Assembly (NCBI GenBank): GCA_963826785.1
Contig: CAWGYD010000005.1
Location: 224,001-288,000, forward strand
Source: an uncultured delta proteobacterium
Lineage (GTDB): Bacteria > Desulfobacterota > Desulfobacteria > Desulfobacterales > Desulfosalsimonadaceae
Direction of reading: 5' to 3'
Length of the DNA: 64,000 nucleotides
Positions 3,379 through 63,013 of this stretch are shown in pieces (within the stretch, counting starts at the first letter, position 1; each line of letters begins with the position of its first letter). The notes beneath the pieces were generated by a model that saw nothing but the letters and a program-made list of their open reading frames with translations, did no database searches and was not told where the DNA came from. The translations under genes were made by a program, and so were the position numbers.

Positions 3379-3511
3379 TGATGCATTCGTAAAAAGTCGG
3401 GAATTTCCGCACCCGTCATTCCGGCGCAGGCCGGAAACCAGTTTTTTCAATCTGTCCTGGACCCCGGCCTGCGCCGGGGTGACGAACTTTGGACTCTTTA
3501 CGGTTTCATCA
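3379..3511. repeat. miniature inverted-repeat element family A, copy 1 (contains a CGTC-type REP doublet)
   Basis: Ends TGATG..CGTAAAAAGTC / GACTCTTTACG..CATCA; internal CGTCATTCCGGCgcagGCCGGAA and CCCCGGCctgcGCCGGGGTGACG. Confidence 0.85.
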
Positions 3512-29871: not shown

Positions 29872-32550
29872 GATTTCCGGAGCAGAAATGCTCCGGCCTC
29901 ATTGAAGCGCATCGAAGCGTCCGGTTCGGTCATGTCCATGCGGTAGATTTCCGGAGCAGAAATGCTCCGGCCTCATTGAAGCACCACCTGATCGTACTTT
30001 TCGCGATCGGACTCGACGATTTCCGGAGCAGAAATGCTCCGGCCTCATTGAAGCGCCGGTGCATCGGTGCGTCATCTGCCAGCGGATGCGATTTCCGGAG
30101 CAGAAATGCTCCGGCCTCATTGAAGCTATCCTATGTTTCGGATAGTTTGATGATCCGGCCGGTGATTTCCGGAGCAGAAATGCTCCGGCCTCATTGAAGC
30201 TCCATAGCAAATGTCGATATCGGTCTACTGCGCATGCTGATTTCCGGAGCAGAAATGCTCCGGCCTCATTGAAGCGATCGCTTTCGTCTTTGATGACCGC
30301 ATCCGGCCATGGATTTCCGGAGCAGAAATGCTCCGGCCTCATTGAAGCCGATGCGCATGCGGGATTTCCAGTCGATGCTCGACGATTTCCGGAGCAGAAA
30401 TGCTCCGGCCTCATTGAAGCGTCATGTTCGGCGGTGAGTATTGCTGCCGCATGTCATGATTTCCGGAGCAGAAATGCTCCGGCCTCATTGAAGCTGATCA
30501 TGTCGCAGATCAGCACATGCACCAACGATCGCGATTTCCGGAGCAGAAATGCTCCGGCCTCATTGAAGCCGATGTCAACGGGTATGTCGTCAAGCTGACC
30601 GCTGCCGTAGATTTCCGGAGCAGAAATGCTCCGGCCTCATTGAAGCCCGCTGCACGTTGCAGCGAATGCATGTGGCAGTCATCAGATTTCCGGAGCAGAA
30701 ATGCTCCGGCCTCATTGAAGCATCGTGGCATGGCAACCTGAAATCGCGTCAATCGATTTCCGGAGCAGAAATGCTCCGGCCTCATTGAAGCTGCTGTGTC
30801 GTCGGCATCTGGTCGCATGCTCGAGCCGCGATTTCCGGAGCAGAAATGCTCCGGCCTCATTGAAGCGAGCGTCACCGGATGATCAGTCGCCATGCGTCGA
30901 TCGGATTTCCGGAGCAGAAATGCTCCGGCCTCATTGAAGCACGATATCCCAGCGGATCACAAATCGCTCGATACGATTTCCGGAGCAGAAATGCTCCGGC
31001 CTCATTGAAGCACCTGCCGCCGATGCGGATCGGTCGAGACGTCCTCGATTTCCGGAGCAGAAATGCTCCGGCCTCATTGAAGCTCGATGGCGGTCGATGA
31101 CTTGCGCCGAATCATGGTGATTTCCGGAGCAGAAATGCTCCGGCCTCATTGAAGCATCGCAATGCGTGCCAGTCGTGCATCGCCGACTGCGGATTTCCGG
31201 AGCAGAAATGCTCCGGCCTCATTGAAGCCTGACCAGTCGTCGCACCTGAATCTCGATCGACAGTCCGGATTTCCGGAGCAGAAATGCTCCGGCCTCATTG
31301 AAGCTGGTGTCAATCGATGATCCTTGCATCGGCAATCGACTGATTTCCGGAGCAGAAATGCTCCGGCCTCATTGAAGCGCTACCGTCAGCAGTCATGCGG
31401 TCAGTGCAGCTCGATCAGATTTCCGGAGCAGAAATGCTCCGGCCTCATTGAAGCATGACATACCGTCGGATACGGATTCGAGAATTTCTGATTTCCGGAG
31501 CAGAAATGCTCCGGCCTCATTGAAGCGATCGATACAGCGCAGGTTGTAGCCGAGTACATCTGACCGATTTCCGGAGCAGAAATGCTCCGGCCTCATTGAA
31601 GCGTGATGACCGATGCAATTAGCAGGCGACATCTTGATCGATTTCCGGAGCAGAAATGCTCCGGCCTCATTGAAGCCGAATGAGCGGCCGGGTGATCGGC
31701 CACCATGCTACGATTTCCGGAGCAGAAATGCTCCGGCCTCATTGAAGCCATCGATGCCAGCACGATGAACCGTGCCGCTAAGTCAGATTTCCGGAGCAGA
31801 AATGCTCCGGCCTCATTGAAGCTCGTCATGCCGTACGCTGTCGAGTGACCTTGTAGGCGATTTCCGGAGCAGAAATGCTCCGGCCTCATTGAAGCCTCAG
31901 ACATCGGCTTGCCGATGCACCCCCGAGCTGGGATTTCCGGAGCAGAAATGCTCCGGCCTCATTGAAGCATCAGTCATTTCTGGGCGATCCACGATCGGAC
32001 GATCCGATTTCCGGAGCAGAAATGCTCCGGCCTCATTGAAGCGCTGCGGCATGACAAATTCGTCATGACCAGGATGGCGGATTTCCGGAGCAGAAATGCT
32101 CCGGCCTCATTGAAGCTCCCTCGATCGGCCCTGGCAGCACCAGGGCTGATTTCCGGAGCAGAAATGCTCCGGCCTCATTGAAGCTACACTGATCACCGTA
32201 TTGGCCGCAATTTCGGACACCGATTTCCGGAGCAGAAATGCTCCGGCCTCATTGAAGCATCACTAGTACGGCGAGTGATACGGAGTTAATCAGTCGAGAT
32301 TTCCGGAGCAGAAATGCTCCGGCCTCATTGAAGCTCGCGTTAACCGTCAGCGTCCGAACACGTCTATCGGCGGATTTCCGGAGCAGAAATGCTCCGGCCT
32401 CATTGAAGCCTGCATACGGCCGTGACTAATACTGTTTTTCAGGATTTCCGGAGCAGAAATGCTCCGGCCTCATTGAAGCAGAATCAGGGCGTCTGAAAAC
32501 GGACGGATCCAGAGATTTCCGGAGCAGAAATGCTTCGGCTTCATTGAAGC
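29872..32550 (+). CRISPR. CRISPR array, 37 repeats of 37 bp (GATTTCCGGAGCAGAAATGCTCCGGCCTCATTGAAGC) and 36 spacers of 31-40 bp
   Basis: Repeats counted manually; 8-bp stem CCGGAGCA-GAAA-TGCTCCGG; last repeat has two substitutions, supporting + orientation. Confidence 0.98.
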
Positions 32551-37548: not shown

Positions 37549-38027
37549 GGGATAAGCGCTAACTTAACGCATAGTATCCCCCCCGTAATCATCCTTTATG
37601 TCATTCCGGCAGTCTTTTAGCCGGAATCCATTTAAATGATTGCGGGATACAAATCCTCCCAATCGGGATTCGTTCTCTCAATCAAATGCATTTTCCACTT
37701 TCGTTTCCAGTCTTTCAATCGTTTCTCTCGCTGGATAGCAGATTCCATACTTCCATGAAGCTTAGATACCAAACCAAAAAATGGACTCCATACTTTTTGG
37801 TGAACCCTTCCACGAAATTGTTTCTATGTTCCCAAACTCGCTTGATGAGGTCGGAGGTCACACCGATATAAAGGGTGCCGTTTCTTTTATTTGCAAGAAT
37901 GTATACCGCTGGTTGCCTGTTCATTTCGTCTTCCTGGATTCCGGCTTAAAGACTGCCGGAATGACGTTCTTAAGAGGAACGACAAATTAGAAGATATTGC
38001 ATCGGTCATTAAGTTAGCGCCTATGCC
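37549..38027. mobile_element. TIR-bounded miniature element (family B) carrying a REP-flanked GIY-YIG gene
   Basis: 19-bp imperfect TIRs GGGATAAGCGCTAACTTAA / TTAAGTTAGCGCCTATGCC; flanking direct repeat CCTCAAG; second copy at 56503. Confidence 0.85.
37632..37924 (-). pseudogene. small GIY-YIG nuclease, one frameshift near 37765
   Basis: AVYILANKRNGTLYIGVTSDLIKRVWEH then, in another frame, SAIQREKRLKDWKRKWKMHLIERTNPDWEDL. Confidence 0.88.
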
Positions 38028-56319: not shown

Positions 56320-56502
56320 GATGTTATCCCTCCTGTATCGTGATTGATTCTCATCACTTCATCTCGACAGATGATATATATCACGATTTCAGGAAAGATA
56401 AAAGCCATTGAGATTCAATTACTTATTATCTCATTGGGCTCATACCAACCGGGCGTTGATCCCGCTGCCGACGGGACACCCCCCTTTAATTCCCCCCTGC
56501 CA

Positions 56503-56751
56503 GGCATAAGCGCTAACTTAACGCATAGTATCCCCCTCGTAATCATCCTTTATGTCATTCCGGCAGTCTTTTAGCCGGAATCCAATGAATAGCAAAGGGT
56601 GCCGTTTCTTTTATTTGCAAGAATGTATACCGCTGGTTGCCTGTTCATTTCGTCTTCCTGGATTCCGGCTTAAAGACTGCCGGAATGACGCTCTTAAGAG
56701 GAACGACAAATTAGAAGATATTGCATCGGTCATTAAGTTAGCGCCTATGCC
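56503..56751. mobile_element. family B element, internally deleted copy
   Basis: Same TIRs and REP hairpins as 37549-38027; direct repeat CCTGCCA; only the first ~18 GIY-YIG codons remain. Confidence 0.85.
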
Positions 56752-56886
56752 CCTGCCAGGGGGGGGACTGAGGGGGGTGAGCCGTCCGGTAGTGAAAAAT
56801 TTTTTGGCGAATCCTTGATAAAATCGTAAAAAGTCTTTATGAGACAACATTGATGAAGCCGTAAAAAGTCGGATTTTACGCTTTCG

Positions 56887-58734
56887 ATAGGGGTCGGGAA
56901 AGGCTCTCGCCCTCCCCGCCCTCCGAACCGTGCGTGCGGTTCTCCCGCACACGGCTCTCCAGTTGGTAGTTTCAACATCGTGACTGGCGCGCCACAGCAT
57001 GGGCTTCGGTTAAGGTGAAAAGCCCGTGCTCAGCGAAAAATGCATTAGGCCAGCGTTTATGATCGGCCAGGCAGCGACCCATACCCGGTCGTCGCTTTTG
57101 TTTGCGCAAGACAGATCGCAGTCGGCGGCGGACAAAACCATCAATCATCTTAAAGGTAAATGGATTCGCATGTTTGAAGTAGCCAAACCAACCTATGAGC
57201 ATCGGATTCAAACTGCCTATTATCTGGTCCAGGCTCTCTCCACGGGATCGGCCGGTTTTGGCCCGTATACGCTCCCGCAGGGACTTGAGGCTTTTCTTTC
57301 GAACCCATCGCTTTCCGGCTTCAAACCGGTAACCCAGGAAGTCAAAGCCTTGTCCTTCTACTGTGCAGTCTCCCACGTGGGTTTTGTCCGGATGCAGGGT
57401 AAGTTCATTTTCTTTTACCCAGGCGCGTATGTCGGCCAGGGCCGACTGCGCTGCCTCTGCACTGGGACACATCACCACAAAGTCATCTGCGTATCGGACC
57501 ATGCGATAACCTTTTGTCCGCATCAGCACATCCAGCGGATGCAGGTACAGGTTCGCCAGCAGGGGACTGATCACCGCACCTTGCGGAGTTCCTCCGGTCG
57601 GCGTCCAGCGCTCCAGCCCACGGACGATATCCTGACCCAGGTATCCCCGAATCAGATCCAGAATACGCCCGTCGCTGATGCGCTCCTGCACTCGGATCAT
57701 CAATCGGTCATGCGGAATGGTGTCAAAGTAGCTCGCAAGGTCGGCGTCCACAACGTGCGTGTAGCCTGCCTTAATCAAACCGTCTACCTCCCGCAGGGCG
57801 TCTTTGCATCCGCGTCCAGGTCGAAAGCCATAGCTCGAATCCAGAAAGTCCCATTCGAAAATCGGCTCTATTACCAGCTTCAGCGCAGTTTGTACGATGC
57901 GGTCTTTTACCGCCGGAATGCCCAGGGGTCGAGTGCGACCCGGCCCTTTGGGTATCTCCACGCGCTTGACCGGCTGCGGCCGGTAAGTGCCGGCCTTCAA
58001 TGCTTCTTCCAGCTCCTTAAGATATTTATCCGCCTTCAACGAAAACCGCTCAACGCTCTGCCCGTCCACTCCGGCCGCCCCCTTGTTTCGCGCGACCTTG
58101 TGCCACGCCAGTTCCAGGGTGCCGGGACGAACCAGCTTGTCGATCAAGCTGAACCACTTGCCTCCTTTGACGCCGTTTTCCAGCGCCGCCAGCATGCGCG
58201 GCGTCCAAATCGAGGCTTCCACCCAGCACCAGTCCCGATGCCCGGTCTCTGCGCCTTGCTTAGCCGTTACCGGCACTGCCGGCGCTTTGCTTATGCTTTG
58301 CCTGTCGTTGGATTTCACGCATCTACCTTCCTGCCTCCCTTCCCTCGGCACGGTTTTGCTTCCCGCGCTTTCCGCAGCATCGGCTGCTTCGGTACTATGA
58401 AGGCTCTGACTCCTGCCTGCGTCACCTCGCAAACAGGTCTCTCCGCTTATCTCGCCACACCTTTCCGGCGTTCCACCTCCAACCACGTGATGCGCCCCGG
58501 CACCGCTTTACGCGCCAATACCCAGCGTACCGGACGATTTTCGGACTTCACCATGAATGAGCAGGCTCGTCGCTGCATCCCGCCGAATCAAGTTCGTCAT
58601 CCTGCGGACCGCCAGTTCGTCTCCGGTTGCTCTCCACCCCACCTCGCGGTGACGCAGTTACCCTCGACTACGGGGCCTTGGCTTACCCCGACACGGACTT
58701 ACACCGTGCTGATATGGCGCCTTTACGGACGCAC
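56887..58734 (-). mobile_element. complete group II intron (1848 nt)
   Basis: 5' GTGCG; domain V GAGCCGTGTGCGGGAGAACCGCACGCACGGTTC; 3' end ACCCCTAT; boundaries confirmed by the empty-site copy. Confidence 0.95.
56972..58318 (-). CDS. ltrA: group II intron reverse transcriptase/maturase, no endonuclease domain
   Basis: GAAGVDG, RPLGIP, GTPQG, YADD and FLGY; probable GTG start at 58318. Confidence 0.93.
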   Translation of the reverse strand: MKSNDRQSISKAPAVPVTAKQGAETGHRDWCWVEASIWTPRMLAALENGVKGGKWFSLIDKLVRPGTLELAWHKVARNKGAAGVDGQSVERFSLKADKYLKELEEALKAGTYRPQPVKRVEIPKGPGRTRPLGIPAVKDRIVQTALKLVIEPIFEWDFLDSSYGFRPGRGCKDALREVDGLIKAGYTHVVDADLASYFDTIPHDRLMIRVQERISDGRILDLIRGYLGQDIVRGLERWTPTGGTPQGAVISPLLANLYLHPLDVLMRTKGYRMVRYADDFVVMCPSAEAAQSALADIRAWVKENELTLHPDKTHVGDCTVEGQGFDFLGYRFEAGKRWVRKKSLKSLRERIRAKTGRSRGESLDQIIGSLNPMLIGWFGYFKHANPFTFKMIDGFVRRRLRSVLRKQKRRPGMGRCLADHKRWPNAFFAEHGLFTLTEAHAVARQSRC

Positions 58735-58852
58735 TCATTCCGGCGGAGGCCGGAATCTACTACAAACTAAGTTGGTTATAGACTCCGGTTTTCACCGGAG
58801 TGACGAACTTCGGACTTTTTACGGGTTCATCAACATTTGAAATGCATAATTT

Positions 58853-61132: not shown

Positions 61133-61266
61133 TGATGAAGCCGTAAAAAGTCGGATTTTACACTTTCGTCATTCCGGCGGAGGCCGGAATCTACTACAAA
61201 CTGAGCTGGTTATAGACTCCGGTTTTCACCGGAGTGACGAACTTCGGACTTTTTACGGGTTCATCA
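61133..61266. repeat. family A element, intact (empty intron target)
   Basis: TGATGAAGCCGTAAAAAGTC ... GACTTTTTACGGGTTCATCA with two internal REP hairpins. Confidence 0.92.
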
Positions 61267-61311
61267 AAATTTCTTGCTGCAAAAACGCCGTCCGGCGGGG
61301 TCGGGTGCTCT

Positions 61312-62884: not shown

Positions 62885-63013
62885 TGATGAACCCGTAAAG
62901 TCGGATTTTACACTTTCGTCATTCCAGCGAAGGCCGGAATCCAGTTTTTCCAATCGGTCTTGCCCCCCGCCTGCGCCGGGCTGACGAACTTTGGACTTTT
63001 TACGACTCCATCA
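62885..63013. repeat. family A element; its right end overlaps the trpA stop codon
   Basis: Same ends and REP doublet; terminal CATCA reads TGA on the minus strand at 63011-63013. Confidence 0.8.

Follow-up and report, generated by a model that had tools for sequence, protein, structure and literature searches.

A group II intron behind the hairpins of a repeated REP pair in an uncultured delta proteobacterium, and a probable hairpin-guided choice of target among its relatives

In the present study, we analysed a 64,000-nt stretch of DNA from an uncultured delta proteobacterium of the Desulfosalsimonadaceae (the window: positions 224,001 to 288,000 of contig CAWGYD010000005.1, assembly GCA_963826785.1), and in particular a group II intron together with the 134-bp repeated element that hosts it, an inverted pair of repetitive extragenic palindromes (REPs). 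The intron lies intact on the minus strand, from GTGCG at 58734 to the final CCCTAT at 56887 (1848 nt), and displays the expected features of its kind, i.e., a GUGYG start, an AY end, domains V and VI, and a reverse transcriptase (RT) with RT0-7 and an X domain. The Rfam model RF00029 covers domains V and VI (56887..56959, minus strand; 56959-56887 in the reading direction of the intron) with 57.4 bits, and its alignment reveals a full-length domain V with an AGC triad at 56956-56954. The RT/maturase open reading frame (ORF), with a YADD motif, occupies 56972..58318 on the minus strand and would encode about 448 aa from a GTG at 58318, a start inferred from GGAAGG upstream; the longest ORF begins at 58486 (504 aa). 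Its product matches TIGR04416, the group II RT/maturase family, with 386.6 bits (cut-off 300), and a Pfam scan of the ORF returned RVT_1 and GIIM only, with no endonuclease domain. An earlier note, made from the letters of the window, had described an endonuclease-less group II intron with a full-length AGC domain V at exactly this place, and both the description and all of its coordinates hold. Antisense to the RT runs a 604-aa open frame (57026-58840, plus strand), also open in the other intron copies, which is probably a shadow of the RT frame.

The host genome assembly (4.43 Mb, 11 contigs, 87.8% complete) contains three copies of the intron, with identities of 100, 100 and 99.95%, and these are the sole RT matches in the genome. 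Besides the copy in the window, one is identical (C5:304724-306571) and one carries a single difference (C10:18536-16689); this near-identity suggests that the intron moved recently. All three sites are intergenic according to a simple ORF listing. GC skew is weak, and the location of two of the three copies on the G-rich strand is uninformative on strand bias. Of the contig sets from four public DNA runs, three contain near-identical intron pieces, and two bridge the 5' end of the intron into the element. In two of the four contig sets we also found a joint that skips exactly 1848 nt, which was not counted as support because any empty copy of the element could give it and the runs may include the source of the assembly.

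Removal of the intron rejoins 56851-56886 and 58735-58832 into a sequence equal to 61133-61266 at 131 of 134 bases, with the empty junction at 61168|61169, just as had been noticed before. The left part of the host element (56850..56886, plus strand) begins with a 21-bp terminal inverted repeat (56850-56870), and the right part (58735..58833, plus strand) ends with its counterpart (58813-58833). The empty copy in the window (61133..61268, plus strand) is one of 29 full copies with no intron (aligned over 125 nt or more at above 90% identity) among 51 loci in the genome that resemble the element; the inverted ends measure 21 bp, and 134 bp separate the end motifs in 27 copies. A genome search for longer elements with the same ends, such as the autonomous partner expected for a miniature inverted-repeat transposable element (MITE), gave none beyond the three intron-bearing ones. 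Between the ends lie two inverted hairpins, each with a CGTC tag, an 8-bp stem and a 4-nt loop. These hairpins agree with CGTC-type REPs in tag, stem (8-9 bp), loop (4-5 nt), multicopy and extragenic occurrence, and arrangement in dimers, and an inverted dimer of such hairpins within a longer palindromic frame has been described for CGTC-1 of H. neapolitanus (PMC3733652), in a paper whose main text does not contain the word 'intron'. Within the family, the left hairpin motif is present in 10 of 58 genomes, the host's own included.

The intron stands directly behind the hairpin at 58735..58757 (minus strand), whose loop ends 10 nt before the junction and whose last six bases, GAATGA (58735-58740 in plus coordinates, read on the minus strand), constitute the intron-binding site 1 (IBS1); the first 3'-exon base, a C at 56886 on the minus strand, is IBS3. 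The second, inverted arm (58781..58803, plus strand) ends in GAGTGA, and its site 58803|58804 carries no intron in this copy. In the other two copies the intron sits at the corresponding site, so that the left arm is used in the window and the right arm elsewhere, in the opposite orientation within the element. Thus all three copies lie in the host element, behind a hairpin, at GA[A/G]TGA|CG. Across the genome there are 601 empty GA[A/G]TGA|C sites, of which 78 have a suitably spaced short hairpin and about 62 fall in the host element, so the chance of finding three of three copies in the element is roughly 0.001 (from about 62/601 sites; the copies are not independent). The earlier note had proposed that the intron is programmed to the core of a dispersed REP family, a claim that copies at non-REP sites would have spoken against. 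Tabulation of the flanks placed both other copies in the same REP element, and the proposal therefore stands for this genome, but the targets of the lineage as a whole turned out to be wider, including hairpins beside IS91-type genes and some sites with no hairpin at all.

The seven GTCATTCC positions that had been listed as one family are indeed all present (the window holds 10 GTCATTCC-type 8-mers, both strands counted), but they belong to different repeats. The one at 61168 is part of the 134-bp element, those at 3415 and 62918 are in diverged relatives of it (about 73-74%), and those at 37600, 37958, 56554 and 56682 belong to a second REP family with a longer loop. The diverged relatives extend over 3379-3511 and 62885-63013 of the window, and the second family (56480-56790 and 37600-37965) consists of two GTCATTCC hairpins with long loops, inverted to each other and embedded in a larger repeat.

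In an attempt to establish how such sites are recognised, we collected relatives of the intron from genome contigs (79 loci), metagenome contigs (80 loci) and related genomes (20 loci); a DNA search of 41 related genomes gave a match in 11, with few whole introns. The loci from genome and metagenome contigs are the best-scoring part of a larger family, and all counts on them are to be read as "at least". The relatives are spread across many phyla. In a first set, the loop with the exon-binding site 1 (EBS1) was located by motif at 60 insertion sites (4 loci gave no match), representing 50 distinct introns. A second, held-out set from metagenomes comprised 82 examined loci, 18 of them with no 5' end and 4 near a contig end, and gave 58 distinct introns, 54 with the motif. 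Two plasmid members, L100 and L101, start with GTACG in place of GTGCG.

Domain I (intron nt 6-293; 58442..58729, minus strand) is of the size known from class C (IIC) introns, as judged from a consensus fold and a column scan. EBS1 is TCATTC (intron nt 175-180; 58555..58560, minus strand), located in the loop of a GAGCCTGC...GGTGAAG hairpin, and C174 (58561), just before it, is from its position likely the delta base. EBS3 is G252 (58483, minus strand), which pairs with the first 3'-exon base. In the first set, 248 of 300 possible EBS1-IBS1 pairs in the 50 distinct introns are Watson-Crick (5000 shuffles: mean 94, maximum 131), with 47, 43, 44, 46, 38 and 30 of 50 at exon positions -1 to -6 and with 39 different EBS1 hexamers. 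The held-out set behaved alike, with 266/324 pairs in 54 introns (shuffles: mean 97, maximum 135). When every alignment column was scanned with no prior choice, exon positions -1 to -6 mapped on intron nt 175-180 in order, and exon +1 was best matched by G252 (45/48 complementary, 36.2 expected); for exon -7 to -14 the scan (55 sequences) gave no comparable column, i.e., no signal of an EBS2-IBS2 pairing. The GAGTGA of the right arm pairs with the same EBS1 through one G-U. A consensus fold of 24 chosen relatives puts EBS1 in the loop of a conserved stem, with two-sided changes in 57 of 72 domain I pairs. The suggestion that TCATTC is EBS1, being complementary to the exon end GAATGA and lying in an Id3-type loop, not buried in a stem, is thereby borne out by fold and co-variation alike. 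The Rfam D1D4-3 alignment agrees with the placement, at 24.6 bits against a gathering score of 32, and no Rfam D1-D4 model attains its gathering score on this intron. A fold of domain I from the single sequence was uninformative (z -0.18, EBS1 region unresolved) and was set aside for the alignment fold and co-variation.

Most relatives have one more thing in common, namely a hairpin at a fixed distance. We defined it as a perfect stem of at least 5 bp with a loop of 3-6 nt that ends 10-12 nt before the junction. Such a hairpin precedes the intron at 53 of 64 sites in the first set, versus 512 of 27015 flank positions, and the rule applied unchanged to the held-out set gave 44 of 58 versus 114 of 6687; two plasmid introns of the latter set also comply when their starts, placed 2 nt off, are set right. 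With the two sets taken together, the rule holds for 89 of 111 distinct introns (shuffles: mean 1.8, maximum 7). Of the 95 introns that have any such stem, 80 have its symmetry centre 12-13.5 nt upstream of the junction; stem and IBS1 overlap in 76 of 91, and the loop-proximal stem bases are G or C in 328 of 364 cases. TTTT within the last 12 nt before the junction was found at none of the 64 sites of the first set and at one of the 58 of the second (1/122 overall). None of ten labelled references from other clades, placed at their published starts, meets the rule (an eleventh start fell outside its locus). Among class C references, L111, L115 and L234 carry a loop 12-19 nt from the junction followed by a T-run, L115 just touching the permitted range at 12, and L114, which has a T-run, shows no stem that this rule would count as perfect.

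What, then, are these hairpins? For 100 distinct introns both ends are available; their junctions lie within a YGTCA tag in 18 cases and within a GTRG tag in 14, the other 68 being of different kinds, many of them at the tail end of CGTC REPs. In each of the five hosts searched with a fitting pattern, the exact target is a multicopy repeat, with 29 matches in genome G041, 13 in G042 (both strands counted), 23 in G048, 11 in G049 and 269 in G051, while reversed-pattern controls gave 0 in all five. Related CGTC REPs number 40 in G043 and 28 in G047, where the pattern is one base too long for targets with a 4-nt loop. From the multi-copy hosts we fetched 30 of 39 matches to the intron-start pattern, 6 of which were not introns; the intron starts pass the hairpin rule in 8/8 cases in G041, 7/7 in G048 and 1/1 in G047. 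In G042, six of eight introns lie behind the same REP, its stem being perfect in 2 cases and mismatched in 4, and the remaining two are one that stands directly behind another intron and one (L224) with no hairpin. In G051, the host of L095-L099, the 22-nt palindromic repeat behind those 269 matches is the target of at least five intron copies.

A further subgroup (12 of 111 introns) shares a CCGCG-loop-GCGG hairpin, which has only 0-3 matches in five host genomes and which, in four of four loci scanned, sits shortly upstream of genes for a tyrosine integrase and for an IS91-type Y2 transposase. It comprises L060, L067, L069 and L072 and, by motif, L063, L065, L100, L101, L185 and L190-L192. 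This hairpin beside the integrase and IS91 cassettes may be the terIS end. The targets of the lineage thus include GTAG and CGTC REPs, at either end, plus the hairpins beside integrase and IS91 genes.

EBS1 alone does not explain the choice of site, since this genome offers 601 empty GA[A/G]TGA|C sites and since what the relatives have in common is a hairpin at a fixed distance and not a sequence. We therefore propose, with a probability of about three in four and from sequence comparison, that the intron ribonucleoprotein (RNP) recognises single-stranded DNA by a mini-hairpin together with 6-7 paired bases, and that the EBS1 of each member has become adjusted to a palindrome that abounds in its host. 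In this scenario, the excised lariat with its RT/maturase would reverse-splice into single-stranded DNA chosen by shape and a short sequence. EBS1 would pair with the last 5-6 exon bases and EBS3 with the next base, and a short, G+C-rich hairpin with its loop end 10-12 nt upstream would stand in for the EBS2-IBS2 pairing. Because IBS1 overlaps the base of the stem in most targets, EBS1 would have to open the lower stem pairs, presumably leaving a mini-hairpin of 4-5 bp directly beside the IBS1 helix. Here, EBS1 would be tuned to the CGTC REP pair of the 134-bp repeat, with some 64 intergenic sites on offer, and it is a reasonable inference that a multicopy intergenic REP serves as a renewable safe target. 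Binding of the hairpin by the RNP, a single-stranded target at the replication fork and priming of reverse transcription by nascent DNA are suggested by analogy with IIC introns, which provide the precedent for reading the shape of a DNA target (PMC10190682).

Several observations weigh against this proposal. The 10-12 nt range was set on the first set, so that only the second is a blind test, and the relatives are not mutually independent. Twenty-two of the 111 introns fail the strict rule, several of them with a one-mismatch stem; L083 and L175 have neither hairpin nor good pairing; L224 in G042, as said, has no hairpin; and L215 and L126 begin directly behind the 3' end of another intron. 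In this genome the second REP family provides 36 sites with perfect IBS1 and IBS3 and a longer loop, all of them empty, although with only three intron copies this emptiness is indistinguishable from chance. Copy 2 (L001; G000 C5:304713-306607) lies in a right-arm context in which position -4 is of the left-arm type and the intron is followed by 12 bases of that type, a combination unique in the genome, which points to recombination or assembly error and not to clean retrohoming; it could stem from short co-conversion with a left-arm donor or from misassembly. Finally, the residual stem of 4-5 bp is far shorter than the 12-bp stem of the IIC structure, so the contacts seen there are not transferable unchanged. 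As for the head-to-tail tandems themselves (L059/L215 at G042 C1:1395772-1397686, and L126), they have no EBS1 match.

The best-surviving alternative, which we regard as unlikely, is homing by sequence only, through EBS1, EBS3 and a few bases read by the protein, with survival bias in favour of intergenic repeats and the hairpin merely incidental. The EBS1 co-variation is strong by itself, the repeats are intergenic and some relatives have no hairpin, all of which speaks in its favour. What survival bias does not predict is a fixed loop distance in palindromes as unrelated as the tag end of REPs, their tail end and the IS91-linked hairpin, and seven paired bases would leave it with the same 601 candidate sites in this genome.

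Almost level with it, and a shade less probable, is the notion that we are dealing with an ordinary, divergent class C intron that settles behind terminator-like hairpins, the REPs acting merely as terminators. The class C introns (the E. rectale intron, PDB 7UIM; GsI-IIC) likewise have no endonuclease, a compact domain I with no EBS2, EBS1 plus EBS3, and a position behind a stem-loop (PMC10190682, PMC8643678); the best solved relatives of the present RT are IIC RTs; and EBS1 at 175 and EBS3 at 252 compare with 184-187 and 231 in the E. rectale intron (PMC10190682). In addition, nearly half of the g6, U1 and U2 introns are reported to follow directly on predicted rho-independent terminators, among them some that have no U tail (PMC8919778). 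The details, in contrast, differ. The E. rectale structure shows a stem of 12 bp, then a spacer and then IBS1, the latter two of 4 nt each (PMC10190682), whereas here IBS1 measures 5-6 rather than 4(+1) bp and overlaps the stem, the loop lies 10-12 nt from the junction, and both spacer and T-run are missing; the class C references L111, L115 and L234 have the remoter loop and T-run noted above. Furthermore, the target hairpin is absent from the terminator-like matches. The IIC triad of domain V is CGC (PMC7923331, PMC10190682), and all 57 sites of the first set that include a 3' end show a full-length domain V with AGC (49 recognised by pattern and 8 by eye).

The RT tree points in the same direction. 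In a quick tree of 36 rows with few references, labelled from Tables S1-S2 of PMC3552965 and from the Miura table, the intron and 13 relatives form a clade (14 rows, SH-aLRT 100) outside the class C set (5 rows, three labelled C in the Miura table and two unlabelled; SH-aLRT 99), and a quick tree of 87 rows recovered the same clade with 72 rows. The D, E and g1 references are on their own branches, those of F-g2 and F-g3 also stand apart, and the clade does not group with Ni.ha.I1 or B.th.I3; class F is represented by g2 and g3 only. An approximately unbiased (AU) test did not reject the clade as sister to class C (p 0.154), which the class C explanation would welcome, or to class F (p 0.236). 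One clade member (L101; NZ_CP022993, 5' end 23112), 68% identical to the intron here, is labelled Unclassified, not C, by Miura 2022 (PMC8919778), in a table that does not specify U1, U2 or U3 for it; three other Unclassified references fall elsewhere. Type g6 is defined by an RT grouping with D.p.I1, Pe.th.I1, Al.or.I2 and Al.ma.I1 and by IIC-like RNA, and our tree rows hold no labelled g6; an unlabelled Alteromonas macleodii intron (L108) adjoins class C, away from the clade. On the whole, the intron shares with class C the compact domain I with no EBS2 signal and an upstream stem-loop, albeit nearer and overlapping IBS1, and departs from it in domain V and its triad, IBS1 length, T-run or attC target and RT nesting. 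It would seem to function like a IIC intron but with another geometry.

Passive spread of one insertion, copied along with the 134-bp repeat or by gene conversion between copies, is very improbable: the terminal inverted repeats and some 32 near-identical copies of the element would permit it, and copy 2, within a right-site context, has its intron flanked on either side by left-site bases, but both arms are used, in opposite orientation within the element, and relatives obey the same rule in unrelated repeats.

Beyond the reading of hairpin plus guide, the data may even indicate an undescribed class of group II introns, separate from IIC, in which a mini-hairpin of 4-5 bp at a set distance is read together with a re-tunable 5-6-nt guide and which has specialised across phyla on HUH-type hairpin ends (GTAG and CGTC REPs and the integrase and IS91 end); this we offer tentatively, at somewhat short of even odds. 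If true, this would give group II introns a second way of reading structure, one that combines a IIC-like domain I with an IIA/IIB-like domain V. Stem-loop targeting has been described as unique to IIC introns (PMC10190682), and a second lineage that reads shape would bear on the relation of IIC to IIB and on whether shape reading preceded EBS2. It would also account for unclassified introns that score as "after terminators" in surveys; the passages concerned in PMC8919778 and PMC4244168 do not analyse EBS1, mention no connection to REPs or IS91 and give no geometry for the hairpin.

Other mobile elements offer partial parallels. The IIC-attC introns, too, land at a non-terminator hairpin of another mobile system (PMC7923331), but they have a class C RT and a short domain V, and they target the attC site of integrons; in our tree, L109, an integron-associated reference, falls with class C and not with the clade. 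Insertion sequences such as ISPa11, ISPpu9/10 and ISPsy8 use REPs as multicopy intergenic landing sites, yet they are DNA transposases with no RNA guide, and a P. putida group II intron was found at REPs in only 2 of 9 copies (PMC1525189). The present lineage, if correctly read, would add an RNA-guided user of REPs beside the known DNA transposases. We found no paper on a lineage of REP-targeting group II introns, and the intron database or theses may describe such targets. The natural swaps of EBS1 (39 hexamers in 50 introns) could serve as a map for aiming a compact intron at intergenic palindromes.

Additionally, the host genome contains five matches to Y1 transposases (PF01797; C4:236786, C4:322812, C6:215051, C6:850875 and C8:290208), and a CRISPR array occupies 29872-32550 of the window, with 37 matches to Rfam CRISPR-DR16.

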